From an uncultured virus (IMG/VR IMGVR_UViG_2061766007_000148) (lineage: Duplodnaviria; Heunggongvirae; Uroviricota; Caudoviricetes): a stretch of DNA of 64,000 bases. The notes beneath the pieces were generated by a model that worked only from the letters and a program-made list of their open reading frames with translations, searched no databases and was not told the origin of the DNA. Of the stretch, positions 31,229-53,838 are shown one piece after another; position 1 is the first letter of the stretch, and every line of letters starts with the position of its first letter. The stretch is taken from the IMG/VR virus record IMGVR_UViG_2061766007_000148. One strand, given 5' to 3'. A program made the translations under genes and the position numbers.

Positions 31229-31254
31229 TTGTAATGTATTGTTAAATATACCCG
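31229..31254 (+). promoter_or_regulatory. conserved virus promoter
   Basis: TTGTAATGTATTGTTAAATATACCCG. Confidence 0.75.
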
Positions 31255-31276
31255 TCTACATAAATATCCTGTTAAG

Positions 31277-31693
31277 GTGAAATATATGCAAAAAGTAAAG
31301 AAAGCGCAAAATGTAAAGGATATTTACTGTGTATCTCCACCAGTTATAATCGATAGAGAAAATAATTGGGTCTTGTATCAGTGTCAACTCCCCGATTATG
31401 AAATGTTACCTCTCTATCTCATAGTTCATAACAACAAAGTTGTTTGCGGGATAATGAATAAGATGTACTTAGCAGTTATAGAACGTGATAATACACATGA
31501 TGTTGAGAAAATTGGGAAATTATCTCCAAAAGCAACCATATCAGGGATATCTACAACAATACAATATTATAATGCAAAGAAAATACCCCAAAAACCACAT
31601 TTGGATTTTTCTTATAAAACGCAGTCTTGGGCGGCAAGTCTGTTGCCTAAAAAAATTTGGGATTATCTAAAAGCACACAAAATAATCTTATAA
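31277..31693 (+). CDS. family F1 small basic protein
   Basis: LIVHNNKVV and IGKLSPK motifs. Confidence 0.75.
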   Translation: MKYMQKVKKAQNVKDIYCVSPPVIIDRENNWVLYQCQLPDYEMLPLYLIVHNNKVVCGIMNKMYLAVIERDNTHDVEKIGKLSPKATISGISTTIQYYNAKKIPQKPHLDFSYKTQSWAASLLPKKIWDYLKAHKIIL

Positions 31694-31738
31694 ATACTCT
31701 TTTTTCACATTCTACAATCATCTAATTTTAAGGTTGAG

Positions 31739-31764
31739 TTATAATGTATCTTTAAGAATACCCT
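31739..31764 (+). promoter_or_regulatory. conserved virus promoter
   Basis: TTATAATGTATCTTTAAGAATACCCT. Confidence 0.8.
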
Positions 31765-31792
31765 ATGATCATACATTTCTCCGGGGATAATC

Positions 31793-32197
31793 ATGTATTA
31801 TACAACTAAAAAGTCACAAAAAAGAGTTGCAAATTTAGGATACGGATGGGCAATTAATCATGCCAAGATTTCAGCCAATCACGGTGCCGATCACGGTGCC
31901 GATCACGGTGTCGATCACGGTGTGATGAATATCTATTTTATCACACATAATTCAAAGATATTTTGTGCTCTTATAAATGGAGGATGTTACAAAGTAATTT
32001 CTCCGTACGGTGATGACATGACTGAAAGAATTTCACCGAATCAGTTCTTAGACGGTTTTGGTGTGGATAGGAACGGTCGATTTATCGGTATGTCTTTTGA
32101 TAAAGTACCTATGACTTTTGCCAAAAAGAATTTGCCCGAAACCGTTTATAAGAAAATGTCTGAGTTCTCAAGATTTCAGAACAGCTACGGGTATTAA
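31793..32197 (+). CDS. family F1 protein; homologue of 57049
   Basis: LGYGWAI, ITHNSKI and ERISPNQF motifs. Confidence 0.8.
   Translation: MYYTTKKSQKRVANLGYGWAINHAKISANHGADHGADHGVDHGVMNIYFITHNSKIFCALINGGCYKVISPYGDDMTERISPNQFLDGFGVDRNGRFIGMSFDKVPMTFAKKNLPETVYKKMSEFSRFQNSYGY
31878..31925 (+). repeat. 4 x 12-bp coding tandem repeat (DHGA/DHGV)
   Basis: ATCACGGTGCCG-type units. Confidence 0.85.
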
Positions 32198-32259
32198 TCA
32201 TAACCCGCTTTCCTTTTTTTAAATCTATTCTGTGTCAGGTTTTCAATATATTGTCCTGA

Positions 32260-32285
32260 TTATAATGTATCTTTAAGAATACCCT
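32260..32285 (+). promoter_or_regulatory. conserved virus promoter
   Basis: TTATAATGTATCTTTAAGAATACCCT, identical to the 31739 copy. Confidence 0.8.
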
Positions 32286-32328
32286 TTGAGAATACATATT
32301 ACACAATCCCAAATTTTGGGGTGATATC

Positions 32329-32724
32329 ATGGTATCGAGGCATTCAAAAACAAGATCTAAATCCGTCGCCGCAAGGGAAATCCCTTCGGGATGGTCTGTT
32401 GAGTATTACAAACCGAGGAATTCTGACGGCAGAGTAAATGTCGGTCTGGTAGTCCATAACAACAGGGTAATTATCGGGTTCGATTTTGCTCACTTTATGA
32501 AGTTTAAGGCAGTCTATCCGAAATTTGCTTTGGATATGCCCAAGTCTGTGAGAAAAGACATTACGGGCAAGATTACGCCTGACAATTTCATTGCCATGGA
32601 CTTTGTGAATGAGATTGAGGCATATGAGATATCCGATGATGCCGCAAAGAGACTCATTCCCGACACGCTCTACAAAAGAATTAAAGCCGGGTTTGAACCG
32701 ACGGTTACAATTTCGGTTCGCTGA
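32329..32724 (+). CDS. family F1 protein
   Basis: VVHNNRVI and ITGKITPDNF motifs. Confidence 0.8.
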   Translation: MVSRHSKTRSKSVAAREIPSGWSVEYYKPRNSDGRVNVGLVVHNNRVIIGFDFAHFMKFKAVYPKFALDMPKSVRKDITGKITPDNFIAMDFVNEIEAYEISDDAAKRLIPDTLYKRIKAGFEPTVTISVR

Positions 32725-32743
32725 AACATAAGGGGGAAATAAT

Positions 32744-33121
32744 ATGGTACACTTATTAGATGGAACATGGGCAGCCATAACAGTTAATAACAGACCCGCG
32801 TTTTTTGAGATCCCGCCGATAACAAGTCCGTGGACATTCATATTTAAAAACGATAAGTTACGTTATGTAGTTATTCGTGGAGGTCTCTATGTTTTATTTG
32901 TCAACGGATTAAATCTCTATTCGGGGAAAATCACGAAGTCTCCGCAAGAACAAGTGGGTTCTATAATTGATTCTTTTATAATGAACCCTCATGACTTTGA
33001 TTTACTTCGTGAGATACACGATCCCATAAAAACATTAAAAGAAATGGGTGCCCCCACATCTTTTATTAATGAATTAGGTCTTAAGAAAACCACTTCACGC
33101 ACTGTAAGGATAAGGAAGTGA
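32744..33121 (+). CDS. F1-related protein
   Basis: PWTFIFKNDKLRYV motif shared with 33715 and 37801. Confidence 0.75.
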   Translation: MVHLLDGTWAAITVNNRPAFFEIPPITSPWTFIFKNDKLRYVVIRGGLYVLFVNGLNLYSGKITKSPQEQVGSIIDSFIMNPHDFDLLREIHDPIKTLKEMGAPTSFINELGLKKTTSRTVRIRK

Positions 33122-33127: not shown

Positions 33128-33718
33128 ATGGAGTTTTACAGGTCAAAACCAAAATTAACTAAAAAAGAATTGAATAAATGGTATAAGGAAGATTATATAC
33201 AGATTGTAAATAACCCTGTTAAAACCGTTGGGGAATGGAGTCTTATAACAGTAACCTCCCCCTATTCGTCGTCAAAATCTGATTGGTATCCCCATAAGTA
33301 TGTATTGCGTAATAACAAGGTAATGTTTAGTATAGGTTGGGCATCATATACCAATACACCTGATAGAGGTGGAAATTCATGGAGTGCATATAACCCAAAA
33401 ACTGATAAATGGGTAGATGTGGCAGGTAAATACACTTTAAAATCATTTTTACAAAAAGCCTACAATCAAGAAATCATTCAGGATATTAAACCTTTAACAA
33501 GCACGGATTTATGGAATAAATATAAAATCCCTCTGTCTGTATTGAATAAATTTGGGTATGTTACAAAACCATCGCCAGCAACGCAAACACTGTATCAAAA
33601 ATCCGCATTTGCTAAGGATCAATATAAATGGTGGGTAGATGATATAAAAACTGCAAGGAAAAGAGGATACAAATACAACAATAAAGACAAGTGGGTTCCG
33701 GGGTGGATGAGGATATGA
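33128..33718 (+). CDS. family F1 protein; paralogue of 34671
   Basis: VLRNNKVM and VAGKYTLK motifs. Confidence 0.8.
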   Translation: MEFYRSKPKLTKKELNKWYKEDYIQIVNNPVKTVGEWSLITVTSPYSSSKSDWYPHKYVLRNNKVMFSIGWASYTNTPDRGGNSWSAYNPKTDKWVDVAGKYTLKSFLQKAYNQEIIQDIKPLTSTDLWNKYKIPLSVLNKFGYVTKPSPATQTLYQKSAFAKDQYKWWVDDIKTARKRGYKYNNKDKWVPGWMRI

Positions 33719-34099
33719 CAAAAAGAATCACGTCCAGAAAGGCAAAAAATGTATATGGGGATTGGGAAGTTGTTACATTAAATCCGGGGGGATTCAGATT
33801 CTCATTCCCATGGAAATTTGTATTTCTGGATAATATATTGAGATTTGTGCTTATTAAGGGAAAAATGTACTCATTAATAGTTGATGATCCAATGTTAGGT
33901 GTTTTAATTAATTATGGGCATATATCCCCTAAAAAACTGATTCAAGATGTTTATGATGCTATTCAATACGGGGAGTATGAATTGCATCGTATAAAAGAAC
34001 TGGNNNNNNNNNNNNNNNNNNNNNNNNNNGTCATTAGACATTGAGGGGACGCCGCTGTTAGAAAATAAGGAATTACCCGGACGCAATAAAAGGAGATGA
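33715..34099 (+). CDS. F1-related protein; paralogue of 37801 (spans an N gap)
   Basis: ITSRKAKN.YGDWEVVT; frame after the gap ends LPGRNKRR, like 37801. Confidence 0.7.
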
Positions 34100-34524
34100 T
34101 TAAAATGCCAACTAAAAGTTCAAAAAATACGAAGTATAACTGGAATCCCAAAACAGACCTTATGCAGATTCATCCGGTTATGGTCATCGGAGATTATGCA
34201 TTCGTGGATGTATTTGCCCGTTATGGAACCGAATATATCCTCCCGCGCAGATATTTCCTACACAAAAATAAAGTGGTTTTAGTCTATGATAGATCCAAAT
34301 TTAAAAAATTGTATTTAACATCGACAGACAGCAGAGGTAATCGTAAGATAAAGTATTCTGCAACGGGTAGATACACACTGAACTCACTTTTGGATAAAGA
34401 AGCCAAGGGTTTGATCTATATGGAGAACATACCTGACATTGAAGTTCTGAATTACATCCCGCTATACGTGATGGAAAGGTTCGGATATGTGATGATTGAT
34501 CGGGTCTGGACGTTCAGGCATTAA
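34096..34524 (+). CDS. family F1 protein; near-duplicate of 38232
   Basis: LHKNKVV and ATGRYTLN motifs. Confidence 0.8.
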   Translation: MIKMPTKSSKNTKYNWNPKTDLMQIHPVMVIGDYAFVDVFARYGTEYILPRRYFLHKNKVVLVYDRSKFKKLYLTSTDSRGNRKIKYSATGRYTLNSLLDKEAKGLIYMENIPDIEVLNYIPLYVMERFGYVMIDRVWTFRH

Positions 34525-34670: not shown

Positions 34671-35237
34671 ATGAGACCGAATTTAACTAAAAAAGAGTTA
34701 AGTAAGTGGTATAGGGACGAGTACATGAAGATTGCAAGTCACCCTGTACAAACAGTCGGGGAATGGAGCCTCGTGAAAGTGACATCTCCCTATGTACATA
34801 AGCCAATTTACAACAAGCGTGACTTTTATCTATCTACTTTCGTATTGCGTAATAATAAAGTGATGTTCAGTATTGATAACAGCCCAGAACTGGAATCTGA
34901 GAGAAGGGGTAGTTCATGGTATGCATTTAACTTTAATACGGATAAATGGGTAGATGTTGCGGGGAAATACACCTTAAAAACATTTATAAAAAAAGCCTAT
35001 AATCAAGAAGTCTTCAGAGGAGCAACGAATCTGACAGCTACGGACTTATGGAACAGATATAAAATACCTCTATCTGTATTGAACAAATTCGGATTTGTCA
35101 CCATTCCTATGGCAAGCTCAAGTTATCTGTATCAAAAATCCGCATTTACAGATGATGTGTATGATCTGTGGCGTGAAAATTTAAGAGATGCAAGAAAAGC
35201 CGGACTCAAATACAATAACAAAGACAGGTGGGTATAG
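34671..35237 (+). CDS. family F1 protein; paralogue of 33128
   Basis: G7 RBS before ATG 34671; VLRNNKVM and VAGKYTLK motifs. Confidence 0.8.
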   Translation: MRPNLTKKELSKWYRDEYMKIASHPVQTVGEWSLVKVTSPYVHKPIYNKRDFYLSTFVLRNNKVMFSIDNSPELESERRGSSWYAFNFNTDKWVDVAGKYTLKTFIKKAYNQEVFRGATNLTATDLWNRYKIPLSVLNKFGFVTIPMASSSYLYQKSAFTDDVYDLWRENLRDARKAGLKYNNKDRWV

Positions 35238-35248: not shown

Positions 35249-35668
35249 ATGGTAAAAATAAACAACAACATTCGTGGACTAAAATTAAATCATAGTGGGG
35301 GCAATGACCCGTATGATAGGTATAAGAGAAAACATACTAACAAAGGTTACACATATATTTTGGATGATAATAACCGTGTAATTTTTATTGTATTGGATTC
35401 TGAGCCATACATTCTATATACATATGAGGCAGTCAATCCATTTGGGGGAACGGATGAAGTAGAGGTTCCCTATACTGTATATATGTTTGAGAAAAAATTA
35501 AACGCGGGTCAAATCAGGCTCTCATACATGGGGCGACCCCCAATGAGATTTACTATGAATAACCCCGCACGAAATCTGTACACAGGTTATCAAAGCAGAA
35601 AGAAGAGTAATCAGATGATTAAGTGGTATTATGATCCTGCTTATAAAGCAAGGAACAAGAGGAGATGA
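35249..35668 (+). CDS. F1-related protein
   Basis: YILDDNNRVI motif; GGAGG RBS. Confidence 0.7.
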   Translation: MVKINNNIRGLKLNHSGGNDPYDRYKRKHTNKGYTYILDDNNRVIFIVLDSEPYILYTYEAVNPFGGTDEVEVPYTVYMFEKKLNAGQIRLSYMGRPPMRFTMNNPARNLYTGYQSRKKSNQMIKWYYDPAYKARNKRR

Positions 35669-36054
35669 TTAAATTGTCAAAAACACATGAAGTATTAGGG
35701 GCATTCAACTTGTTTTTCGGCATCGGATCGGACAACAAGGTGCATTATATTAGACCTTTATCATCTTATGAAAAAATGTTTCCTGAGAAGATAGTTCATA
35801 CCCCGCAAGGTAAGTTTTTATCGCCATGTTCCGGGGAATATACTCAAAAACAAATAACTAATAAGATATATAAGCATGAAATTGTTTTGGTAGGGAATAA
35901 TGGGGTAATTATTTTCCCCCCTAAAAATGCCAAAAAACTGTATCATTTATTTAGAGGTACTAATGGAGGATTAGTGCATTACCCGGACAAATCGGGTCTG
36001 GCTAAGACTATAAATTTACCCCCGCATATAAATCGAGAACAGGTTTTTGATAAG
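35665..36054 (+). CDS. family F1 protein, 3' end lost in N gap; paralogue of 52029
   Basis: PCSGEYTQKQITNKIYK motif. Confidence 0.7.
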
Positions 36055-36237
36055 NNNNNNNNNNNNNNNNNNNNNNNNNNNNNNNNNNNNNNNNNNNNNN
36101 NNNNNNNNNNNNNNNNNNNNNNNNNNNNNNNNNNNNNNNNNNNNNNNNNNNNNNNNNNNNNNNNNNNNNNNNNNNNNNNNTTTTCTTTTTTTGTCACATG
36201 CTCTTTAATCTGTGTAAAATTCTCAGATCCCCGTTGA

Positions 36238-36288: not shown

Positions 36289-36618
36289 ATGATATCTACC
36301 GAAAACTCACAGAGTATATTTCAGAAAATATATCGCAGATTGACAACCCCGTGTATTGGGGCTGTGTATGTCGTCGGGGGATTATGCATGATGTTTGTGT
36401 ATGTGACGATAAGTATTGTTCAGCTGAATTGTCCTGAGCTTTTGAATACCGTAACTGATTATTATAAAGCGGTATCTGATTTCAGCACACTGTGTCTTAT
36501 GTCGATGTTCCTGACGGCATGGTATTATCGTGAAAAATCCATGTCAAAAAGATATATCTCGGATGTTAAAGTCTGGAAAGAGTTCTATCAGGAACACTCC
36601 GGTGAGGTTACGGATTAA
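36289..36618 (+). CDS. 2-TM membrane protein F5; homologue of 44818
   Basis: 2 TMs; VKVWKEFYQEH tail. Confidence 0.75.
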   Translation: MISTENSQSIFQKIYRRLTTPCIGAVYVVGGLCMMFVYVTISIVQLNCPELLNTVTDYYKAVSDFSTLCLMSMFLTAWYYREKSMSKRYISDVKVWKEFYQEHSGEVTD

Positions 36619-36651: not shown

Positions 36652-37032
36652 ATGTCATTACTCGAAAAGATGTCTAATGTCTATAACAACGTAGTTGAGT
36701 GTTGGAACAAACCGACAATGCATAACGTATTCAGATTGGGGATGTTATGGTGTATATTATACGTTATTGTTGCCTCTCTGATAATTATCCTTGCTGCCGC
36801 ATCATTCCCTCAGAACTTTATTATCGTAACCGATGATACGGAGGTCATCACGGATTCCCCGATTGTTATTGACCTGAGATTTTTGGGCGTGTGGTCTATG
36901 TACGGTCTGTACGGGTTGGATGCCGCGATATTAATCATGATTGCATATTTCGCCAGACTGTCTTTGAGATACAGGGAGACGGTCAAAAAGTGGAAAGCAT
37001 TCTATGATGAGCATCATCCGCAGAATGCCTGA
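36652..37032 (+). CDS. 2-TM membrane protein F5; homologue of 44440
   Basis: 2 TMs; VKKWKAFYDEH tail. Confidence 0.75.
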   Translation: MSLLEKMSNVYNNVVECWNKPTMHNVFRLGMLWCILYVIVASLIIILAAASFPQNFIIVTDDTEVITDSPIVIDLRFLGVWSMYGLYGLDAAILIMIAYFARLSLRYRETVKKWKAFYDEHHPQNA

Positions 37033-37088: not shown

Positions 37089-37517
37089 TTAAAGATGTTT
37101 CAGAATTTCCTGCCAAGGTGCTTTGTATTCGTAATTGTCCTTGGGTTTTTTGCCGCGGCTGCGTGAGCTCTTCGGTGCCGAAGACGGAGATTTGCGCAAC
37201 GCGGTTTTAATTATCTCCTCGCGTATCCTGTCACGACGTTGATCGGGTGTCGCATACGGAATTTCACGGTCAACCTTTTCCGTGATGTGTTTCATCTCCG
37301 CATTATCCGTCGGCACCACACGAATTGACCGATTGTGTGCCTGACGTTCGCGTTCGTTACGGAAATAAAATCTGCCGAGGATTTCCTCTTCGGGAGAGAT
37401 ATACATCCTTTTGTAGGCATCGTCGTATGAATATCCCCAATCGAGGAGATATTCATGCCTGAGACCCCGACGTTCGGGATGAAGTCTCTTGGCAATTACT
37501 ATGTAACTTTGCGGTGA
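37089..37517 (-). CDS. basic protein, near-duplicate of the 43377/44005-44407 gene (5' end in N gap)
   Basis: SPQSYIVIAKRLHPERR...KAPWQEILKHL. Confidence 0.7.
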   Translation of the reverse strand, partial: SPQSYIVIAKRLHPERRGLRHEYLLDWGYSYDDAYKRMYISPEEEILGRFYFRNERERQAHNRSIRVVPTDNAEMKHITEKVDREIPYATPDQRRDRIREEIIKTALRKSPSSAPKSSRSRGKKPKDNYEYKAPWQEILKHL

Positions 37518-37800
37518 NNNNNNNNNNNNNNNNNNNNNNNNNNNNNNNNNNNNNNNNNNNNNNNNNNNNNNNNNNNNNNNNNNNNNNNNNNNNNNNNNNN
37601 NNNNCCCACCATGCGGAGAGTTGTTTGTTTTTTGATAAAGATATTTTTTAACACCCGAATCATCAATTACTGAGATTACATTTCCTTTTTTATCCAGAAT
37701 GTAATCAAAATAATCAAATCCCAAACNNNNNNNNNNGAGAGATGCAAGAAAAGCCGGACTCAAGTACAATAATAAAGACAGGTGGGAATAGGGGGAAAAA

Positions 37801-38235
37801 ATGACAATAAAAATCACATCAAGAAAGGCAAAAAACAATTATGGTGATTGGGAAGTTGTTACCGTGTCTTCCGACGGCAAAGTAAAATATAAACCATATC
37901 AGGACGGTAAACCGTTTAACGGAGAATATCGGTTCAATGATCCTTGGAAACTTGTTTTTTATAAGAACAGGTTAAGATATGTAGTTTGGGAGAAAGGTAG
38001 TTTGTTTATTATAGATGTGCCGTATTTGGTATTAGATTCAAGGATGCCTGCTAAAAAACAGGTTCAACAGATGATCCCTTATATTACAGACTATCAGGAT
38101 AATTGTATGTTATATCGTATGAATGATCTTGGTCTTTTAAAATATGCCCCCGTCGCGTTAATTAAGTCTTTGGGGATTACTGGTGCGCCAATGTGGGAAA
38201 TTAACGGGTTACCGGGAAGCAATAAGAAGAGATGA
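37801..38235 (+). CDS. F1-related protein; paralogue of 33715
   Basis: PWKLVFYKNRLRYV motif; GGGGGA RBS. Confidence 0.8.
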   Translation: MTIKITSRKAKNNYGDWEVVTVSSDGKVKYKPYQDGKPFNGEYRFNDPWKLVFYKNRLRYVVWEKGSLFIIDVPYLVLDSRMPAKKQVQQMIPYITDYQDNCMLYRMNDLGLLKYAPVALIKSLGITGAPMWEINGLPGSNKKR

Positions 38236-38681
38236 TTAAAATGCCAACTAAAAGCTCTAAAACTACTAAGTATAACTGGAATCCCAAAACTGACCTTATG
38301 CAAATTCATCCGGTTAAGGTCATCGGAGATTATGCAATCGTGGATGTATTAGCCCGTTATGGTACCGAATATATCCTTCCATGGAGATATTTCCTGCACA
38401 GAAATAAAGTGATATTAGTATTTGACGGATTAAAATTTAAAAAATTGTATTTAACATCGACAGACAGCAGAGGCAATCGTAAGATTAAGAGTTCTGTAAC
38501 GGGTAAATACACACTGACATCACTTTTGGATAAAGAAGCCAAGGGTTTGATCTATATGGAGAATATACCTGATATTGAAGTTCTGAAATACATCCCGCCA
38601 TACGTGATGGAAGGGTTTGGGTATAGTATCCCCTCGGTTACGAAGGGAATGCCTTTCATAATATGTCGTCTTTGGGGGTGA
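38232..38681 (+). CDS. family F1 protein; near-duplicate of 34096
   Basis: LHRNKVI and VTGKYTLT motifs. Confidence 0.8.
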   Translation: MIKMPTKSSKTTKYNWNPKTDLMQIHPVKVIGDYAIVDVLARYGTEYILPWRYFLHRNKVILVFDGLKFKKLYLTSTDSRGNRKIKSSVTGKYTLTSLLDKEAKGLIYMENIPDIEVLKYIPPYVMEGFGYSIPSVTKGMPFIICRLWG

Positions 38682-38686: not shown

Positions 38687-39046
38687 ATGACAATCAAATA
38701 TAATCCTAAAGATACATGGAGCAAAACAAAAGGTATGCAGATCCGTTACAGAACGGGAATCTGGTCTTTTGTATTACGTAATAACAAAGTGTTTTGTGTT
38801 ATTTATAATGATTCTGACTCAGGTGATGTGTTATACAGATTGTATAGCAGAACCCCGAACCACGGGTCGGGCAGAGGATATACAAAAACGAGTGCAACGG
38901 GGAGGTATTCTCTTAATACCGTTCTTGAAAAACTGAGCTATACAGATTCACTGGGTATTGAACCGATGATGGACTCCGAGATTCCCGTACCTGTTTGGAA
39001 AGCTCTCGGTTACGATGTTTGGACAATTCATCCGAAAAGCAGGTAA
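38687..39046 (+). CDS. family F1 protein
   Basis: VLRNNKVF and ATGRYSLN motifs. Confidence 0.8.
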   Translation: MTIKYNPKDTWSKTKGMQIRYRTGIWSFVLRNNKVFCVIYNDSDSGDVLYRLYSRTPNHGSGRGYTKTSATGRYSLNTVLEKLSYTDSLGIEPMMDSEIPVPVWKALGYDVWTIHPKSR

Positions 39047-44787: not shown

Positions 44788-44817
44788 GTTAATCATCCTG
44801 AATCCTGTTTGATTGAT

Positions 44818-46798: not shown

Positions 46799-47263
46799 AT
46801 GCCTGAAAAAACTAAGAAAAAAGCAATACCGCGTTCATCAAGAGTAAAGGCAGTCCGTGTACCTATACGAACAAAAGCACGGTTATTTGTTGCATACACC
46901 AATTATGGTTATTACCCAAATCGGAACAGAGAATCGGACATATATAAGGTTCCTGTATCTATTGATATTATTCCGGGGTATGATATTCCTGAAAAATACC
47001 AAAAAGCGCAAAAAGCGCAGTATCAGTTAATAAATGCGCATTATCCTATGTTTTCAGAAAAAAAGGCTCCAAGAATATTTGGTTATACAGGTATCCCGAA
47101 GAATAAACTGGAAAGGGTTTTAGTAAAACATGAAAACATTGAGAAAAATCTCAATAAATCAAATCCAAATTATGATAGATCGAGTGTTAATGCCAATTAT
47201 GAAATCGGCAGATATGCACGTCACAAAAGAGTAACTAAGGGTAAAAAATCTTACCGGTCATAA
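46799..47263 (+). CDS. family F2-like basic protein
   Basis: FVAYTNY motif; YARHKRVTKGKKSYRS tail. Confidence 0.75.
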   Translation: MPEKTKKKAIPRSSRVKAVRVPIRTKARLFVAYTNYGYYPNRNRESDIYKVPVSIDIIPGYDIPEKYQKAQKAQYQLINAHYPMFSEKKAPRIFGYTGIPKNKLERVLVKHENIEKNLNKSNPNYDRSSVNANYEIGRYARHKRVTKGKKSYRS

Positions 47264-47289: not shown

Positions 47290-47724
47290 ATGACAACAAC
47301 AAGAAAAACTACAAAAAAGAACAGTAATCAGGTTTACAATCATCCGGTTTACAAAGATGGATATTATGAGATAATTACGGATGTTCCATCACTGGATATC
47401 CTGCCTGTCATATCTGAAAATGGTATTGTCAGTCTTATTACATATAAAGGGAAAGTCATCAATGTTGCAGGTCGCACTTCGGGAAGAAATGTTCCGTGGG
47501 TTGCTTTTTTAGAGTATGTTCAATACAGTCCAAAATATGGTGTATATTCCGAACCCGCAACAGGCAGATTCAGTCCGAAAACCGTAATTAAATTATTAAA
47601 CACACCTCGTAATCAGTATCCGCATTTAAAGATTCATTCCGCTCCTGATATTTACGATGCATTACCTGCATCCGTAATGATGAGGTTAGGTTTCAGGAGA
47701 GAGATGTGGTCTCGCAAGAGATAA
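47290..47724 (+). CDS. family F1 protein
   Basis: ITYKGKVI and ATGRFSPKTVIKLL motifs. Confidence 0.8.
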   Translation: MTTTRKTTKKNSNQVYNHPVYKDGYYEIITDVPSLDILPVISENGIVSLITYKGKVINVAGRTSGRNVPWVAFLEYVQYSPKYGVYSEPATGRFSPKTVIKLLNTPRNQYPHLKIHSAPDIYDALPASVMMRLGFRREMWSRKR

Positions 47725-47748: not shown

Positions 47749-48075
47749 ATGCCACACATATTTGAGAGTAAATATTACGGGCGCGTTCTTGCCGGTGGAG
47801 ACATCATACCATCACCCGGATTTGCGTATGTAATTAATAAAAATAATAAAATTGTCTTGGGATTGGATTTCATGGCAAGAAAACCATACAATTATGCCGA
47901 ATATATCCCTTTAAGAAGAAATCGCCGCAAAGAATGGGTAAATTGTTCCGGGGAATATACATGGGGGGAGTTCAAAAGAAAATTGTTAGACGAGGGTATT
48001 AGGTTCAAACTCAAAGGTACAAAAAGTAAAAGTATTTTGATAAATGATGAGGCTTACTTCGTTGATAAGTATTAA
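47749..48075 (+). CDS. family F1 protein
   Basis: YVINKNNKIV and CSGEYTW motifs. Confidence 0.8.
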   Translation: MPHIFESKYYGRVLAGGDIIPSPGFAYVINKNNKIVLGLDFMARKPYNYAEYIPLRRNRRKEWVNCSGEYTWGEFKRKLLDEGIRFKLKGTKSKSILINDEAYFVDKY

Positions 48076-48114: not shown

Positions 48115-49062
48115 ATGGCATCGTTACACAAAGAAAAACAGAAACAATGGCGAAAAGAGCGTAGGGAGAGGATGATTAAGAATCTTATCTCCGATATCAA
48201 ATCAATCCCTACAAGCATCGACATCGCAGTTTCAAACACAAAACGTGCAATTCGCCGAAAGCGTATCGAACACAGATTAAATCAGCTTGAACGTCAGCGT
48301 GCCGAAAATGACAAAATCAGGGCACGTGTGGATGAAGAATATTTCTACGAACCTGAAGAAGATGACGTGGAAGAATTCGAGGAGTCCGATTATGAGGACT
48401 ACAAACCGCGTCCGAGAGCTGAACACAGAGGAAGCGGTGCGGCATCACGCGGCAGGACTCCGTATCCGTCATCGGGTTACACAACGGCGCCGAGGGGGAG
48501 ATCATCTTCGGGACACTCGAAGAGCCGTCCGGCATCTTACGGAGGGGGAAAGCGATCAGGCGGTGCCGAGTCCGGCAGAGCTTACTATCGCGACGATGAC
48601 GGGAGACACAAACCGCGGTATCCCAAAACCGAAAGCCGCGGGGGAATCTACCCGGCATCAAGACCTATGAGAGCGGCGCCGAGACCTCAACCGAGACCGC
48701 AACCAAGACCTCAACCGCAACAGCCGTCCAAGAAATGGGAGTATGCGAAAAAAGCCGCGGCAGTAACCGGTCAAATCCTCAAAAACGTTGCAACAAATCT
48801 CACTACGGACATGTACCCGCAGTCGGGATCTCGGTCAGGCGGAGGCAGATCACCGTATCCGCCATCGGGAGGAAGCACACTTCAGTTCTGGGATAACGGT
48901 GCTCCGCCGTGGGCACAGCCGACCCGCGCTCCAAAACCGCGGGGCAGGAAAAGACAGCGCTCAGAACCTGACTTCGGATATCCTGAATTCGGATATCCTG
49001 AATTCGGATACCCGGACTTTTCGGGTTTCGGAGACGGAGATTCAGGGTTTGGCAGATGGTGA
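48115..49062 (+). CDS. low-complexity R/G/S/P-rich disordered protein
   Basis: coiled N-terminus, RGS-rich core, PQPR and FGYPE repeats, LQFWDNG.PPW motif. Confidence 0.75.
   Translation: MASLHKEKQKQWRKERRERMIKNLISDIKSIPTSIDIAVSNTKRAIRRKRIEHRLNQLERQRAENDKIRARVDEEYFYEPEEDDVEEFEESDYEDYKPRPRAEHRGSGAASRGRTPYPSSGYTTAPRGRSSSGHSKSRPASYGGGKRSGGAESGRAYYRDDDGRHKPRYPKTESRGGIYPASRPMRAAPRPQPRPQPRPQPQQPSKKWEYAKKAAAVTGQILKNVATNLTTDMYPQSGSRSGGGRSPYPPSGGSTLQFWDNGAPPWAQPTRAPKPRGRKRQRSEPDFGYPEFGYPEFGYPDFSGFGDGDSGFGRW
48964..49030 (+). repeat. 15-bp coding tandem repeat (FGYPE)
   Basis: TTCGGATATCCTGAA-type unit x3. Confidence 0.8.
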
Positions 49063-49101: not shown

Positions 49102-49554
49102 ATGGCAACAAGTAAATCTATAAAAAAATCTTCAAGAAAACCAAGGGCGCAAATTGCGTATTCGCCACATTTAGAATATAGAGTTCGTGGTATGTCGGAT
49201 ACATATGAATACGTCCCATATATGTATGCTCAGCCTATGTCAATTGACTCACCCAAAAAAATTCGTAATGTGGCATATGAGTATGCAAAAGGTCATTTAA
49301 ATGATACAGTTAAGGGAAAGAGACTTCCAAAACGAATGCATGTGGTATCTGTACCGACGAATGTATATTTCAGGGTGTCACAAAAAAACAGACCAAAAAT
49401 AAAAGCAGATGCAGAGCCTTTGATATATTCGGATGATGATTTGTCAACTTTTAATGATAAATTAATGGGTATAATACAAAAACATTGGACTCAAGAAATG
49501 CGAAAAACAATCCATCATAAGCGTATGAGAGGAAGTCGTTCATCAAGATTATAA
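49102..49554 (+). CDS. family F2 basic protein
   Basis: IAYSPHL, HVVSVP and HHKRMRGSRSSRL motifs. Confidence 0.8.
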   Translation: MATSKSIKKSSRKPRAQIAYSPHLEYRVRGMSDTYEYVPYMYAQPMSIDSPKKIRNVAYEYAKGHLNDTVKGKRLPKRMHVVSVPTNVYFRVSQKNRPKIKADAEPLIYSDDDLSTFNDKLMGIIQKHWTQEMRKTIHHKRMRGSRSSRL

Positions 49555-49571: not shown

Positions 49572-50054
49572 ATGGCAAAGAAATCGTCCAAAAAGGAGAT
49601 TGTAAAGAAGATTGCATTATTCGGGGGACAACTTCTGCGAAATGTTGCATCGAATATGTCAAATTCTCAAGGCGGAGGTTCACTGCAATTCTGGGACAAC
49701 GGAATGCCGCCATGGGAGATGTCGCAACCTAAACCGAAACGCAAAACAAGGTCATCTTTATCATCCTCTTCATCATCGACATCAAGGAGCAGATCCAAAT
49801 CAACGTCGAAGAAGAGCGCACCGAGAGATAATGTCATAAGCGGATATGTCCTTGAGATTGCCCCGGACGGCACGGTAAGTTCAGCTTACAAGAACGGCAG
49901 GTATTACATACCTTACGCTCTTTTCAGATACACTGACGGAGAGTATTGGGAACCGTGTGTTGCAGAATACACTCCCGACGAAATCAGAGAATTCATCCGG
50001 CAGAAAGCGTTCAGATGGGTAGATGAAGAAAAATACAAAGGAAGGAGGAGATAA
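49572..50054 (+). CDS. chimeric protein: LQFWDNG motif plus F1 domain
   Basis: N-half resembles the 48115 C-terminus; C-half has CVAEYTPDEI. Confidence 0.75.
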   Translation: MAKKSSKKEIVKKIALFGGQLLRNVASNMSNSQGGGSLQFWDNGMPPWEMSQPKPKRKTRSSLSSSSSSTSRSRSKSTSKKSAPRDNVISGYVLEIAPDGTVSSAYKNGRYYIPYALFRYTDGEYWEPCVAEYTPDEIREFIRQKAFRWVDEEKYKGRRR

Positions 50055-50056: not shown

Positions 50057-50575
50057 ATGGCGGCAAAAAAGATTCAATCAAAAAAATTATTTAAATCATA
50101 TAGTACTATTGAATATATTCCCACATTACATCGTATTGAAGATGATCCATATACCGAGTGGGATCGCCAACCACATGACAGATACCCAGTTGTAAATTAT
50201 AACTTACATCCATCGGCAGAAGAGAGATCTGACGAACGTAGTCTCTTAAAAGATGTGAGAAAATTATCAGATGATGTTGGATATCATTACTATAATCAAA
50301 AAGGTGAGAGAGTTACCGGAGATGCTTTCTTAAAACACAAATCATATCAGGTTAGAGTACCGCGCTCATCTTTGGTAAGCTCTCTTTCAAAAGCGTATGA
50401 GACCGCAGAGAAACGTATCGCACATCGTAAAGATTTTTATGATGACTTTAACTATGGAAATCTATTTGATTATTGGCGTAATGTTGAAAATTCCAAAGAA
50501 GTGTATAAATTAGCCAGTAAAACTCATGCGAGACGGAGAAGATCCGGAAAATCATCACTGAGATTAAGACGTTAA
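50057..50575 (+). CDS. family F2 basic protein
   Basis: IEYIPTL, YQVRVP and KTHARRRRSGKSSLRLRR motifs. Confidence 0.8.
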   Translation: MAAKKIQSKKLFKSYSTIEYIPTLHRIEDDPYTEWDRQPHDRYPVVNYNLHPSAEERSDERSLLKDVRKLSDDVGYHYYNQKGERVTGDAFLKHKSYQVRVPRSSLVSSLSKAYETAEKRIAHRKDFYDDFNYGNLFDYWRNVENSKEVYKLASKTHARRRRSGKSSLRLRR

Positions 50576-50602
50576 ATTAGTAAATATAAGGGGGAAATTA
50601 AC

Positions 50603-51127
50603 ATGAAATCAAAGAAATCTATAAGGAAACAGACAGATTCTGAAGTGTATTATCCATCAATATACAATAATATATCGACTGGTAGAAAATATACTGATAA
50701 AAAATACATGTATGTAGCATATCCAATATTTGAGAAAGATAATTATGACACTCCAAAATACTATGATTATTATCTCCCCAATTGGGGTGCAGATAATATC
50801 CGAATTTCTCGCAAAAAAGCAAGAGATGGAGCAAATCGGTACGCAGGAGTAAGGGGGACGGTCAAAAAAATACATGTTATACCTGCAACACCGAGTCAAA
50901 TACGGAGAGCACGTGATAAGGCTGAAAAGAAATATTCCCGCCGTGATTGGCAGAATTCTCTTATCAATTATTACAGCCAAAATCGGGACAACGTTAGCCA
51001 TGGTGATCCTGATAAATTCAGAGGGGAAGTTGGTGAATTATTCCACTTGATAGACAGACAAACCCATGAATCTGTTATAACAGATCTCAGGAGAAAAGCA
51101 CGAAAAAGAGGAAAGAAGTTCTTTTAA
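50603..51127 (+). CDS. family F2 basic protein
   Basis: YVAYPIF, HVIPAT and LRRKARKRGKK motifs. Confidence 0.8.
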   Translation: MKSKKSIRKQTDSEVYYPSIYNNISTGRKYTDKKYMYVAYPIFEKDNYDTPKYYDYYLPNWGADNIRISRKKARDGANRYAGVRGTVKKIHVIPATPSQIRRARDKAEKKYSRRDWQNSLINYYSQNRDNVSHGDPDKFRGEVGELFHLIDRQTHESVITDLRRKARKRGKKFF

Positions 51128-51148
51128 AAATTAAAGGGGAAAATTAAC

Positions 51149-51679
51149 ATGGTAACAAAGAAAAATTCTAAAAAAATAAGAAAGAGTCCAAAGAGATCGG
51201 AAAAATATTATGTAGCATATTCACCGGACATATTGGAAAAATACTCTGATGATGATCAGATGTATGGTCACTCAGAGTATTACCCATATACTACAATCAT
51301 ACATCCACATCAACAAGACATTTATAAACCCGCTAAAATGGCTAAAATCTTTGTAGAATCTTCTGCAAAACGCTATAAAGATATTTATAATCCTTCAAAA
51401 AAGCATATTGATACAAAGGATCTTCAAAAAATTAAAATGTATGTTGTACCTGTGCCTAAAATCGCAGTAGACAAACTTAGAGATAGAGAATTTGAAGAAA
51501 GATTGGCAAAGTACAATTTGGTTAAAGATAAATTCCCTTACAGTGCAGGAAGGATATCTTCTGAAATAAGTGCTCGTGAAAATGCAAAACTCTTTGAGCG
51601 TACACGTCGTGGTCGTGCACGCAGGAGAACCGGCAGAATAACTCAGAAATATCGCAATACTTATAGAATGAAAGAATAA
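51149..51679 (+). CDS. family F2 basic protein
   Basis: YVAYSPDI, YVVPVP and RTRRGRARRRTGR motifs. Confidence 0.8.
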   Translation: MVTKKNSKKIRKSPKRSEKYYVAYSPDILEKYSDDDQMYGHSEYYPYTTIIHPHQQDIYKPAKMAKIFVESSAKRYKDIYNPSKKHIDTKDLQKIKMYVVPVPKIAVDKLRDREFEERLAKYNLVKDKFPYSAGRISSEISARENAKLFERTRRGRARRRTGRITQKYRNTYRMKE

Positions 51680-51721
51680 TTCCTTTTAGGAATTATTCGA
51701 TTGATATAGGGGGAAAATATC

Positions 51722-52036
51722 ATGTTTACAAACAAATCAGGTCTCGGCACGGTCGGTCGCATCGTGCCGCAGAAAAACGGACTGAATTATATCATTGGAT
51801 ATAACGAAAGAGTAATCGGGGCAGTAAGCTCAGATAATCCTGCTGAGCAGTATGTCCTTGAGTATTACAACACGAAAAAAGACCAATGGATTAAACCGTG
51901 GATGATGCCGAGGAATTATCATATTGCTGACATCAACAAAATGATCAAAGAAGGAACGGCAAGGTTCACGGAGTACACCGGCAATCCGGAGAATAACGGA
52001 TATGCCGTAAATAATAAGGAGGTCTACCATGCCTGA
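51722..52036 (+). CDS. F1-related protein (resembles 47749)
   Basis: YIIGYNERVIGA motif. Confidence 0.7.
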   Translation: MFTNKSGLGTVGRIVPQKNGLNYIIGYNERVIGAVSSDNPAEQYVLEYYNTKKDQWIKPWMMPRNYHIADINKMIKEGTARFTEYTGNPENNGYAVNNKEVYHA

Positions 52037-52343
52037 AGTAATTGGTGCACACAAAATTGTTTATGGGGTGAATTCGAGGGGCAACGTCATATATTTGCGT
52101 CCCCGATTATCCGACACAATCTACATCCCCGAAGAGATACATTCCGGCAACGGTTTGAGGGGTTGGGTGCCGTGTGCGGGAGAATACACACCCAAGCAGA
52201 TGAATGAAAAGATATATAAGCGCAAAATCAGGTTAAACTCAAAATATGAAAAAGAATACCTGTATGTAGCATCTCCGAGGGAGATGAAACAATACCCGAA
52301 TGCCGTATTCATCGGCATTCCTAAGAAATATTCAAACTCTTAA
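52029..52343 (+). CDS. family F1 protein
   Basis: PCAGEYTPKQMNEKIYKR motif. Confidence 0.8.
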   Translation: MPEVIGAHKIVYGVNSRGNVIYLRPRLSDTIYIPEEIHSGNGLRGWVPCAGEYTPKQMNEKIYKRKIRLNSKYEKEYLYVASPREMKQYPNAVFIGIPKKYSNS

Positions 52344-52385
52344 TCTCTTTTTAATTATCGCTCATTTCCGGGTAAAAATCTAAAG

Positions 52386-52411
52386 TTGTAATGTATTTTT
52401 ATGTATTCCTT
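52386..52411 (+). promoter_or_regulatory. conserved virus promoter
   Basis: TTGTAATGTATTTTTATGTATTCCTT. Confidence 0.85.
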
Positions 52412-52451
52412 AAAGGAATAGTTTATATTGTATTTTAAAGGGGGAAAAATT

Positions 52452-53048
52452 ATGAAATATTATAGAGTAAAAAAAGAATATGCCGATAAGCAGACATATA
52501 TACGGGATAAAAATAACTCTTGGAAGGTTGGAGAGCCGCTTTATGCGGATGCACTTTTCACACCTGCTGAAAGAGCAAAGATGTATCCTAATGTCAAAGA
52601 TTCTGTGTTTAGTGTAGTAGATATTCCTAAAAACAGAATATACTATTCTTTTGGACTAAGGTTTGCCAATCCTGATAATGAAGTAAATGCACGGTTATTG
52701 AATACTACTTGTTTAGGGTATCCATATCATAAATATGGTGCGGATGGTTTGATTACAGACATCCCACTATGGGGAAGTTCTCAAAAAATATACATACTTA
52801 CAGAGAATGATAAGTTTGTAAGTTTATGTATGAAGACTAAGGCATTCCATATCCCAAATGAATACTTATTAATATCAAATATTAATCATCAAGATTTAGG
52901 TGGGAAAATATCTCCTCAGAAGGCAATTAAAATACTTACAAATCCTAATTCAAAACATGAGTACTCAATTATAGTGAATATTGTACAGGGAAGATCAATT
53001 AACTTTGCGGCAAAATTACCGTATGAGTTACGCCCATATTATAATTAA
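52452..53048 (+). CDS. two-domain protein: MKYYRVK domain plus F1 domain
   Basis: LFTPAER..YYSFGLRF N-domain; ILTENDKFV..LGGKISPQKAI C-domain. Confidence 0.75.
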   Translation: MKYYRVKKEYADKQTYIRDKNNSWKVGEPLYADALFTPAERAKMYPNVKDSVFSVVDIPKNRIYYSFGLRFANPDNEVNARLLNTTCLGYPYHKYGADGLITDIPLWGSSQKIYILTENDKFVSLCMKTKAFHIPNEYLLISNINHQDLGGKISPQKAIKILTNPNSKHEYSIIVNIVQGRSINFAAKLPYELRPYYN

Positions 53049-53060
53049 GGAGAATTTGAA

Positions 53061-53520
53061 ATGGCAACAATACGTAAAACAACTCCAAAAAAGACATCCG
53101 CAAAGAAAGCATCCAAAAAACCGATTGACTTGGGNNNNNNNNNNNNNNNNNNNNNNNNNNNNNNNNNNNNNNNNNNNNNNNNNNNNNNGACTTGCATTGG
53201 TTTACAACGAAGGGGATATTCTTTGGTACGTTGATGAAAATACTTTACCGAGTAAGATAAGACATAAAATATTACAAAGATCACGGGATATGGTAAGAAA
53301 AAGGGAGGAACGATACCTTTCAGAAATTAATGCCCGTAAATCTCAGATGGACTGGTATGTACGTAACGGATTATTAACACCGGAAGAAGCGGACAGCCGC
53401 AGAAAATATGAACAGGCATGGGCGGATATCGGATATAAAAAAGAAAAGCAAAGATATCAGGATTACGTTTCAAAACGAGAAAAGGCAATCCACTCATACC
53501 CGGCAAAGCGCCGCAGATAA
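53061..53520 (+). CDS. basic protein (spans an N gap)
   Basis: AAGGAG RBS; MATIRKTTPKKTSAKKASKK leader. Confidence 0.65.
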
Positions 53521-53544
53521 CTAAAAAACAAAGGAGAGTAAAAC

Positions 53545-53667
53545 ATGATACGCTACATCCAATACGCAAATTCACAGAACAGTCCGGAAGTTCTCAAGGC
53601 AAAGGCTGAACTCAGAACTATCAAATTCAGCACACTCGCAAAATATCAAAGCAAGTTCAGGAGGTAA
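53545..53667 (+). CDS. 40-aa basic peptide
   Basis: AAGGAG RBS; MIRYIQYANSQNSPEVLKAKAELR...; below the track cutoff. Confidence 0.45.
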   Translation: MIRYIQYANSQNSPEVLKAKAELRTIKFSTLAKYQSKFRR

Positions 53668-53670
53668 TTG

Positions 53671-53838
53671 ATGCCTGCTAAGAGAAAGCGGAAAATCAGA
53701 ATACCTCATATAGAACTGAGTCCTGAATTTAAGAAAGATTTGAAGAGAGCCAAAGCACATGCAAAAATGGTAAAAAGAATCGGGCATAAATCGGAATCGA
53801 CCCGAAAAACAAAACCTAATAGAAAATCTTCTTTTTAA
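53671..53838 (+). CDS. 55-aa very basic peptide
   Basis: GGAGGT RBS; MPAKRKRKIRIPHIELSPEFKKDLKRAK... Confidence 0.5.
   Translation: MPAKRKRKIRIPHIELSPEFKKDLKRAKAHAKMVKRIGHKSESTRKTKPNRKSSF

Follow-up and report, generated by a model that had tools for sequence, protein, structure and literature searches.

A hypervariable island of small basic protein genes in a probably archaeal, virus-like element from ruminant guts

Gene content of the island

The subject of this study is a gene island at positions 31229-53838 (~22 kb) of a 64,000-nt stretch of DNA from an uncultured virus-like element; the whole stretch is referred to as the window in the following. The island harbours 46-47 short open reading frames (ORFs) for proteins of 40-315 amino acids, four of them on the minus strand. 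Nearly all of these ORFs are preceded by a Shine-Dalgarno (SD) sequence, GGGGG or GGAGG, located 3-11 nt 5' of the start codon, and the intergenic gaps typically measure 13-40 nt. Lysine and arginine outnumber aspartate and glutamate in 44 of the 46 scored proteins, with net charges of up to +23. The array of about 45 genes for small basic proteins, which had been proposed in the original prediction, is therefore confirmed.

The island consists of head-to-tail cassettes, each made up of SD sequence, ATG, ORF and stop codon, in approximately nine operons, each of which stands under one strong, element-specific motif bearing a TATA box. It is built by the expansion of a few orphan families, chiefly a beta-rich domain of about 70 amino acids and an alpha/beta family of about 150-190 amino acids with disordered basic tails. 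In the course of its evolution, entire cassettes are acquired, lost or exchanged by recombination at the SD-ATG junctions, which are almost identical to one another. N runs mask several stretches, of which 43524-44004 is the longest, so that one or two genes are visible only partly. The individual genes are as follows; families are explained further below.

31229..53838: whole island, ~46-47 small ORFs in ~9 transcription units
31286..31693 (+): family 1, in a BLAST cluster with 57463 (-)
31793..32197 (+): assigned to family 1 by a BLAST cluster, with the basic leader MYYTTKKSQKR
32329..32724 (+): assigned to family 1 only through the iterated profile; leader MVSRHSKTRSKS
32744..33121 (+): family A5 by BLASTP clustering, without leader
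33128..33718 (+): family 1, core model E 3.6e-5
33715..34044 (+): family A5; leader MTKRITSRKAKN; 3' part N-masked
34105..34524 (+): family 1 by BLASTP and iterated profile; starts MPTKSSK
34671..35237 (+): family 1, core model E 6e-5
35249..35668 (+): family 1, core model E 3.4e-3
35665..36237 (+): family 1, seed member of the core model; 3' part N-masked
36289..36618 (+): small membrane-protein family (BLASTP), first of four
36652..37032 (+): small membrane-protein family (BLASTP), second of four
37089..37838 (-): inverted, incomplete copy of 42876-44407 with a family-1 domain and the C-terminal module, partly N-masked
37801..38235 (+): family A5; leader MTIKITSRKAKN
38241..38681 (+): family 1 by BLASTP and iterated profile; starts MPTKSSK
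38687..39046 (+): family 1 by BLASTP and iterated profile
39173..39397 (+): family 1 (core model), minimal 74-aa form; modelled, pLDDT 90.3
39421..39663 (+): family 1, with the leader MATRKSKK; L012 has other cassettes in its place
39685..40017 (+): small basic protein in no BLASTP cluster (singleton)
40049..40516 (+): family 2 core; leader MTTRKSTKR; tail ...RRRRSGRTSLRR
40545..41006 (+): family 2 core by iterated model; starts MGKKISYDD
41033..41362 (+): family A7 (BLASTP), without leader
41389..41724 (+): singleton; starts MVTKKTSKK
41738..42244 (+): family 1, core model E 4.3e-6
42336..42845 (+): family-2-like architecture, statistically unjoined; leader MVTKNRSKK
42876..43349 (+): family 1 (core model), two tandem domains
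43461..44407 (+): family-1 N-terminus plus C-terminal module; middle hidden by the N run 43524-44004
44440..44796 (-): small membrane-protein family (BLASTP), third of four
44818..45147 (-): small membrane-protein family (BLASTP), fourth of four
45172..45543 (-): family 1 by BLASTP and iterated profile
45786..46178 (+): family A7; leader MPCSTKKTTKSR
46194..46778 (+): family 2 core; leader MPTVKSKKK
46799..47263 (+): family-2-like architecture; leader MPEKTKKK
47290..47724 (+): assigned to family 1 only through the iterated profile, with the leader MTTTRKTTKK; deleted in an X5 contig
47749..48075 (+): family 1, core model E 4.3e-9
48115..49062 (+): 315-aa basic protein rich in Pro, Gly, Ser and Arg; module in common with the N-half of 49572-50054
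49102..49554 (+): member of the family 2 core, with the leader MATSKSIKK; cleanly missing from L012, X12 and X17
49572..50054 (+): family-1 domain at the C-terminus (core model); leader MAKKSSKK
50057..50575 (+): family 2 core; modelled, pLDDT 77.6, both tails disordered
50603..51127 (+): family-2-like architecture; leader MKSKKSIRK; deleted in an X5 contig
51149..51679 (+): family 2 core; leader MVTKKNSKK
51722..52036 (+): possible, weak family 1 member from profile searches
52029..52343 (+): family 1, seed member of the core model
52452..53048 (+): family A6, paralog of 12809-13255; deleted in X12 and X17 contigs
53061..53520 (+): leader MATIRKTTPKK; reading frame ambiguous across the N run 53135-53188
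53545..53667 (+): 40-aa basic ORF
53671..53838 (+): 55-aa very basic ORF, 36% K+R, starting MPAKRKRKIR

The four paralogous small membrane proteins (36289-36618 and 36652-37032 on the plus strand, 44440-44796 and 44818-45147 on the minus strand) all end in a conserved amphipathic stretch with the approximate motif V-K-x-W-K-x-[FY]-Y-x-E-H. The minus-strand gene 37089-37838 lies among plus-strand genes and has no promoter copy of its own; L012, a relative described below, matches it at 90.7% in inverted orientation.

The common promoter motif

A position weight matrix built from seven copies found in a repeat search was used to scan both strands with a cut-off of 25 bits. This revealed 13 copies of a 26-nt motif with the consensus WTTRTAATGTATTTTTATATATTCCC at 25-35 bits, and by our arithmetic only about 0.004 matches of 25 bits are expected in 128 kb. 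All 13 copies precede either a gene for a major capsid protein (MCP)-like protein (two copies) or a small-protein gene (11 copies):

12738..12763 (+): before 12809-13255, the paralog of array gene 52452-53048; core TTTATATA; 33.1 bits
31124..31149 (-): before MCP-like gene 1; 35.0 bits
31228..31253 (+): first unit of the array; 32.1 bits
31738..31763 (+): 25.2 bits
32259..32284 (+): 26.3 bits
34600..34625 (+): 29.3 bits
36237..36262 (+): 31.9 bits
39114..39139 (+): heads the ~13-gene operon 39173-44407; 35.1 bits
45585..45610 (-): for the minus-strand trio from 45543 to 44440; 33.7 bits
45658..45683 (+): heads the ~13-gene operon 45786-52343; 27.5 bits
52385..52410 (+): last unit of the array; 32.4 bits
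57899..57924 (-): before the family-1 genes 57463-57882 and 57049-57444 (-), outside the array; 25.8 bits
57992..58017 (+): before MCP-like gene 2; 33.7 bits

The motif core TTTATATA is a canonical archaeal TATA box and fits the consensus TTTAWATA, as given in a study on archaeal viruses (PMC11065993). Read from the sequence, the motif has no sigma-70 spacing. The distance between its end and the start codon is 17-46 nt at 12 sites and 103 nt at the remaining one, which leaves room for a short leader RNA bearing the SD sequence. With nine copies in the array (eight on the plus strand, one on the minus strand) for about 46 genes, transcription in operons of up to ~13 genes has to be assumed. 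The idea that the cassettes sit behind the promoter of the capsid genes is therefore correct in so far as MCP-like genes and array units have the motif in common, but it heads about nine operons and not each cassette. The motif may simply be the strongest promoter of the element, and a CopG/RHH-type regulator encoded at 11120-11431 (-) is a candidate for binding its conserved upstream half.

Protein families and their distribution

An all-against-all BLASTP comparison of the array proteins resulted in clusters of 10, 6, 4, 4 (the membrane proteins), 3 and 3 members, of which those with 10, 6 and 4 belong to family 1. For family 1, a non-circular core hidden Markov model (HMM) was built from six proteins with seven domain copies and tested on 125 sequences, where it detected eight further window proteins (E 1e-10 to 3e-3). 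Core HMM, BLAST links and an iterated profile, the last of which is partly circular, together assign approximately 21 array proteins and two proteins outside the array to one common domain of about 70 amino acids. It comprises a beta-hairpin of the pattern h-h-x-N-N-K-V-h-h-h and a helix starting with G-x-Y-T-P-x-x. The AlphaFold2 model of the 74-aa member 39173-39397, calculated from a 23-row paralog alignment, reached the pLDDT given above and shows six short strands and one helix. In VIA-align, its best match was OsmE with a Z of only 4.1 (rmsd 2.2 over 52 residues). Comparison with the models in BFVD superposed it on uncharacterised small proteins from gut phages with TM values of 0.67-0.84 and an rmsd of 1.5-2.8, at E values of ~8e-3 to 3e-2 that lie above the tool's line of 0.001.

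Family 2 comprises six members of about 150-190 amino acids according to an iterated HMM. Five of these, all except 40545-41006, follow one plan: a basic N-terminus, the motifs Y-x-P and h-h-V-x-V-P, long helices and a basic tail, for example ...ARRRRSGRTSLRR. The model of 50057-50575 has its lowest confidence at the ends (49 for residues 1-10 and 34 for the last block), hence both tails are presumably disordered. The proteins starting at 42336, 46799 and 50603 are built alike, but no link to family 2 was obtained for them with hhalign, and they are not counted as members. Likewise, a pattern seen by eye (hhxNNKVhhh ... GxYTPxxh) had suggested that A5, A6, A7 and family 2 itself belong to family 1, but hhalign assigns such a relationship a probability of 1.4% or less.

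The leader-bearing proteins discussed below thus fall into at least seven groups that neither HMMs nor hhalign join. Nevertheless, the earlier statement that they come from otherwise unrelated families goes too far, since about 21 array proteins share one domain and five of the 17 leaders belong to a single six-member family.

Outside the window, a word-indexed search of 5.8 billion proteins returned only near-identical strain variants (15 for family 1, six for family 2), and the Atlas gave no usable match for family 2. The family-1 HMM matched 54 of 1.84 billion representatives at an E value of 1e-3 or better. Eight of these are long Ig-like, CarboxypepD_reg-type or other repeat proteins, and we regard them as probably spurious. 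The remaining 46 are unnamed proteins of 66-241 amino acids, some of them clearly diverged with the stretch W-D-N-C-x-G-x-Y-T-P-E-Q kept. Scans of IMG/VR with the back-translated CxGEYTPEQ pattern and with the alignment A4 found no relatives, and 11 pattern matches in genome contigs all proved unrelated, since they were either out of frame or belonged to GNAT acetyltransferases or a NuoF-like protein.

One diverged homolog of 72 amino acids, P0072, is encoded at 7478-7696 (+) of contig L013 and is 43% identical to 39421-39663. Its surroundings (L013 1-17693) are those of a bacterial integrative and conjugative element (ICE) or a mobilisable element: the gene has a tyrosine integrase on one side and a MobA/VirD2 relaxase on the other, and ArdC, DUF5688 and a coupling protein of the TraG/VirD4 type are encoded close by. 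With P0072 as query, tblastn against plasmids and phages yielded nothing.

The 315-aa protein 48115-49062 and the N-half of 49572-50054 share a module (...LQFWDNG.PPW...), and in the metagenomic protein P0070 (241 aa) an N-half of similar type, basic and rich in Pro, is coupled to a family-1 domain. Domains thus seem to be shuffled within the island.

Turnover of whole cassettes

A 20-kb part of a 75-kb JGI metagenome contig, L012, proved to be a mosaic relative of the island, in which blocks of 88-97% nucleotide identity are broken by whole-gene differences:

39443-40447 (window): two other family-1 and two other family-2 genes in place in L012
40545-41006 and 49102-49554: absent from L012
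42876-44005: an A7-type gene in place in L012
before 48115: an extra leader-bearing gene inserted in L012

The end points of these differences at window 39443, 42868, 48096/48120 and 49108/49549 fall in the SD-ATG region, and the gene inserted in L012 is bounded on either side by AGGGGGAAATACAATG.

The stretch 44410-53100 is also present in public runs labelled bovine gut, sheep gut, manure or 'gut' from about ten studies, and one of these samples may be that from which the window itself derives; parts of it that were uncovered in the contigs of some runs were not counted as absence. Contigs from three further studies (cattle, sheep and 'gut') contain six joints at which exactly one gene is deleted:

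47279 to 47744: X5, gene 47290-47724 lost
49088 to 49560: X12, gene 49102-49554 lost
49100 to 49571: X17 (sheep), gene 49102-49554 lost
50590 to 51136: X5, gene 50603-51127 lost
52439 to 53059: X12, gene 52452-53048 lost
52447 to 53059: X17, gene 52452-53048 lost

Both ends of each joint lie 1-14 nt 5' of a start codon, and several joints show a microhomology of 7-8 nt. In addition, X17 carries a 449-nt replacement of 46194-47216. Other joints with short sides or undefined inserts were left out of the argument.

The 13 ortholog pairs between the window and L012 differ at a proportion of 0.064 of synonymous (pS) and 0.012 of nonsynonymous sites (pN). The ratio of 0.19 indicates that the retained cassettes are functional and under purifying selection. 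The diversity of the island is mainly due to cassettes being re-dealt rather than to point mutation.

The basic leader and the basic C-termini

Many array proteins start with a basic leader, which we defined as a net charge of +4 or more in residues 2-12. Eight ORFs with doubtful starts or adjoining N runs were excluded from the count. The leader is present in 17 of 46 array genes and in four of 71 other genes of the window (Fisher p=2.4e-5), and a charge of +4 or more is reached in only 3.4% of the internal 11-residue windows of array proteins. It is distributed over family 1 (4 of ~21 members), the family 2 core (5 of 6), the family-2-like proteins (3 of 3), A5 (2 of 3), A7 (1 of 2) and two singletons. 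Even close paralogs differ in this respect: 39421, 45786 and 37801 possess a leader, while 39173, 41033 and 32744, respectively, do not. The C-termini are frequently basic as well (14 of 45 array proteins versus seven of 76 others, p=0.003). An origin of these C-termini from the SD sequence of the next gene, read in frame, applies to only about four genes with gaps of 6 nt or less.

The nucleotide composition explains a part of the leader. Codons 2-12 of the array genes contain 48% A, and at third positions the share of A is 50% compared to 30% in the gene bodies. Among Thr codons, ACA makes up 63% in codons 2-12 and 39% in the bodies, and among Arg codons the corresponding values for AGA are 61% and 38%. 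The other genes of the window show the same trend more weakly (37% versus 28% A at third positions). This synonymous skew to A points to an mRNA-level cause for part of the leader. Random codons drawn from the composition of the start region give a +4 leader in 16% of cases, those drawn from the body composition in 4.5%, so that the A-rich start region accounts for about a third of the leader excess, but not for all of it: the observed 37% exceed the expected 16% (binomial p=4e-4, with the genes treated as independent although they include paralogs). Moreover, acidic residues are rarer than expected (0.57 D/E per leader instead of 0.85), even though the Glu codon GAA is A-rich, too.

It is conceivable that the leader has no function as a peptide at all and is a by-product of A-rich initiation regions, paralogy and junction recombination, in which case the array would be a set of fast-evolving, dispensable ORFs. 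Besides the composition of codons 2-12, a breakpoint 22 nt inside a leader would fit this explanation. Nevertheless we consider it unlikely, since the leader excess and the depletion of acidic residues go beyond composition, the C-termini are basic too, and the pN/pS ratio shows that the genes are not junk. With only one breakpoint within a leader, exchange inside leader DNA is a minor contributor.

The shared basic leader of the original prediction is thus a real enrichment across at least seven unjoined groups, caused in part by an A-rich nucleotide composition, while the opposite view that the similarity is no greater than such a composition predicts accounts for a leader in 16% of genes but not in the observed 37%. 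It does not look like a conserved targeting sequence: the leaders share a compositional bias to K, R, T and S but no fixed sequence. As these results bear out in part, the leader combines three contributions: an initiation region rich in A and poor in structure, real selection that favours a basic and disordered N-terminus, and inheritance together with junction exchange among paralogs.

The MCP-like genes and the nature of the element

On either side of the island, the motif precedes one of two closely related genes, each of which belongs to a larger module:

30695..31087 (-): MCP-like gene 1, 130 aa, two hydrophobic helices
58052..58441 (+): MCP-like gene 2, for a protein of 129 aa that shares 78% identity with that of gene 1
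26397-31087 (-) and 58052-61484 (+): the two copies of the structural module, from BLASTP pairs

The scans with Pfam and PHROGs covered the 64-kb window, with 77 ORFs outside the island and the 46 ORFs within it. Designation of the two genes as capsid genes is a lead. The protein weakly matches phrog_16261, annotated as 'virion structural protein' (E 6e-4), its two hydrophobic segments are kept across 12 homologs, and its neighbours in the Atlas are mostly archaeal (Methanobacteriota) or viral, with 64% Archaea. The Atlas also leads to VP1_VP3 and His1_capsid, at a score of 0.84 that is under the tool's trust bar. However, neither VP1_VP3 (PF06281) nor His1_capsid (PF25665) is among the Pfam matches of the protein, even at E values up to 10, and a PDB sequence search returned only KcsA at E>1, a match that we ascribe to chance. 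IMG/VR scans with the protein and with its alignment A8 revealed no relatives, tblastn against phages found nothing, and the metagenomic homologs form 16 clusters of unnamed proteins. Judged from these sequence features, the likely coat protein would be of the spindle-virus type, a membrane protein with two helices.

The MCP-like gene and five downstream genes occur twice in inverted orientation and flank the island (six BLASTP pairs); the Kelch-repeat proteins at 22904-25477 (-) and 62410-63405 (+) are also paralogous. This arrangement could be a real inverted duplication, the result of two joined related elements, or an assembly chimera at the repeated promoter. As a whole, the element is a virus or virus-like, comes from the guts of ruminants (cattle, sheep), and is probably archaeal, methanogen-infecting and of the spindle type.

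Function of the array proteins

The explanation that we favour, with a confidence somewhat better than even, is that the island represents a hypervariable accessory set of probably nucleic-acid-binding host-interaction proteins of a probably archaeal ruminant-gut virus or element. With their basic tails, the array proteins would attach to nucleic acid or to acidic targets in the host, and they might act in host takeover or counter-defence. A role in host interaction is suggested by the hypervariability, by the occurrence of P0072 in an ICE-like context, and by the promoter pattern published for archaeal viruses (PMC11065993). At any rate, the central element of the original prediction, a diversified library of small basic proteins under the motif of the MCP-like genes, is borne out by the motif scan and by the variation of cassettes from strain to strain.

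Several results weigh against this explanation. According to PMC11065993, the motif of anti-defence genes belongs to early genes, but in the window the MCP-like genes stand behind the motif as well. Pfam, PHROGs, NCBIfam and PADLOC gave no match for any of the 46 island ORFs, including none to known anti-CRISPR (Acr) or Acr-associated (Aca) proteins, although these libraries may not contain archaeal Acrs and no direct comparison with Acrs was made. Structure comparison was similarly unrevealing: the family-1 model has no convincing match in the PDB (Foldseek best E 0.6), the family-2 model matches no fold beyond helical hairpins (VIA best Z 4.7), and with one member per family in the AlphaFold/Foldseek check both models gave Foldseek E values of 0.27 or worse. 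The sole family-1 homolog from another type of element sits in a bacterial-type conjugation context, and the archaeal domain of the host is inferred from the TATA box, SD use and the Atlas neighbours (64% Archaea), with ARAGORN finding no tRNAs in the window that could support a host. The left side of L012 differs from the window and is without the mirrored inverted structural modules. Finally, most breakpoints lie in the SD-ATG spacer, and only that at window 39443 is inside a leader.

VP2 of SSV1 is a small basic DNA-binding virion protein, and the array proteins might correspondingly serve as viral chromatin, that is, as redundant DNA-condensing structural proteins by which the genome would be coated or made more compact, either inside the cell or inside the particle. 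The net basic charge of 44 of 46 proteins, the disordered basic tails of family 2 and the promoter motif in common with the MCP-like genes are all in line with this. Yet ~46 distinct genes of several families are not needed for a structural role, which also does not predict that single genes are present in some strains and missing from others, and four of the members are membrane proteins. We therefore regard it as rather improbable.

By analogy to the internal proteins of phage T4, the array could also encode a payload, whose leader or basic tails let the proteins ride on the DNA into the particle in order to act at time zero. According to PMC3012670, the T4 internal proteins are diverse and have in common only the capsid-targeting sequence, a defined sequence read by the scaffolding core of the prohead, and IPI* counters a restriction system. 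The array resembles them as a diverse set of small basic proteins with a common N-terminal feature, and the promoter shared with the MCP-like genes, the leader excess beyond composition, its occurrence in at least seven unjoined lineages and its presence or absence among close paralogs, as expected of an add-on module, would all agree with packaging. However, the leader is a K/R/T/S bias with synonymous codons skewed to A instead of a conserved sequence, and approximately 29 of the 46 array proteins lack it. Furthermore, neither an HK97 capsid nor a portal, terminase, scaffold or protease was found by Pfam or PHROGs among the 77 and 46 ORFs of the window, so that nothing among the window genes corresponds to the prohead, scaffold core and maturation protease of T4. 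Apart from diversity and N-termini that loosely resemble one another, no hallmark of the T4 model is seen, and packaging of this kind is quite improbable.

A bolder version, which we consider a long shot, would combine these elements: a spindle-type methanogen virus might produce a strain-specific library of ~46 proteins from the coat promoter, which would be bound to the DNA via their basic tails, carried in the particle for a first-strike counter-defence, and re-dealt at the SD-ATG junctions. If true, an archaeal virus with non-icosahedral particles would possess a protein payload, which would be loaded by charge instead of by a tag read by a scaffold.

A bacterial nature of the element, as a phage or a conjugative element from rumen Bacillota, is very improbable, and so is a chimeric assembly of the window from two related elements; in either case the 'capsid' regulon would be misread. 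The ICE-like context of the L013 homolog, the bacterial phage proteins among the BFVD fold neighbours, the weak MCP identity and the deviating left flank of L012 are opposed by a motif that fits an archaeal TATA promoter without sigma-70 spacing, by Atlas neighbours of the MCP-like protein that are mostly Methanobacteriota or viral together with the weak VP1_VP3 and His1_capsid leads, and by an island that is colinear in L012 and in the contigs from other studies.

Comparison with known systems

The closest parallels to a host-interaction set come from different groups of viruses. The multigene families (MGF) of African swine fever virus, the 'accordions' of poxviruses and the multi-copy AcrID1 of rudiviruses and lipothrixviruses are examples of paralog expansion with strain-wise changes in copy number of host-facing genes. 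In contrast to these, unrelated families are involved here, and the turnover proceeds cassette by cassette at translational junctions within operons. Hyperplastic regions with PeSL cassettes in T4-type phages have reportedly been treated by Comeau et al. in 2014.

Arbiol et al. (2010; PMC2839356) describe such hyperplastic regions with PeSL regulatory cassettes, in which insertions, deletions and replacements end in short repeated flanking motifs. As in these regions, non-essential orphan genes are clustered in the island, and the end points in L012, X5, X12 and X17 fall in short repeats flanking the genes. However, the recombining repeat is here the SD-ATG junction (16-30 nt) and not a promoter-terminator stem-loop, and the element is probably archaeal and not tailed.

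A similar system is that of Bhoobalan-Chitty et al. (2024; PMC11065993), who predicted anti-defence genes (ADGs) among the small and variable genes that stand under one strong promoter motif in archaeal viruses, and who validated two of them. The conserved promoter, a TATA box TTTAWATA plus an upstream element, stands before unrelated coding sequences; in fuselloviruses, which are spindle-shaped, the ADGs form an operon whose content varies from virus to virus, and AcrID1 homologs are located at the termini of SIRV2. The island likewise has a conserved promoter before small unannotated genes, with 13 copies at 25-35 bits and several families. There are also clear differences: 3-12 mostly single genes per virus are given there, but approximately 46 genes in 22 kb with long operons are found here; the motif marks early genes there and also MCP-like genes here; and the hosts there are Sulfolobales, here presumably a rumen methanogen. 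In addition, the island is dominated by two expanded orphan families, in which library searches detected no homolog of a known Acr. Our literature search found no paper on such an array in a rumen spindle virus, with the methanogen-virus compendium of Medvedeva et al. lying outside its coverage.

Viruses of rumen methanogens are almost unknown, and their hosts matter for the methane output of livestock. Approximately a third of the window is made up of one promoter-defined set of small proteins that differs gene by gene from herd to herd, the hallmark of a host-virus arms race. Approximately 46 of its proteins can serve as candidates for host interaction or anti-defence, and they include a ~70-aa domain that is modelled with confidence, is without a solved relative, recurs in a bacterial conjugative element and has the same fold as proteins of gut phages. 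The island is also a natural example of cassette shuffling inside operons at ribosome-binding-site junctions, and it raises the question whether a strong promoter shared with a coat gene marks delivered or merely abundant proteins.

Other features of the window and of L012

Outside the island, Pfam and PHROGs label only a few of the 77 ORFs, and the window is otherwise nearly unannotatable:

4799-5458 (-): DNA methyltransferase (phrog_757, E 1e-62)
11120-11431 (-): CopG/RHH-type regulator (Pfam/PHROGs)
13773-14213: DUF1828 (Pfam/PHROGs)
22904-25477 (-), 62410-63405 (+) and 63677 onward: Kelch/BNR repeat proteins (Pfam/PHROGs)
55218-55406 (+): CcdA-like small protein (Pfam/PHROGs)

DNA methyltransferase, CopG/RHH regulator and CcdA-like protein are the sole recognisable non-structural genes of the window, in which Rfam detected no families. 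The Kelch/BNR repeat proteins are likely receptor-binding or adhesin-like proteins of the element, and tandem repeats of ~144 nt at 24333-25141 and 63188-63998, within these genes, correspond to beta-propeller blades. Seven tandem 9-nt units (GAYGGNNNN) at 14784-14869 encode (D-G-x)n, a collagen-like or low-complexity stretch, in the large minus-strand gene region 14432-18096 beside an ORF of 1015 amino acids.

In L012, positions 4979-7000 contain about five copies of a ~50-nt repeat with recurring ORF fragments of the type 'FYLKRM..Y..VINT'. Two tRNA calls by ARAGORN lie amid these repeats, Leu-CAA at 5404-5479 and Met-CAT at 5718-5793. Since the 76-nt 'tRNA-Leu' is without the expected long variable arm, these may be tRNA-like repeats rather than working tRNAs.

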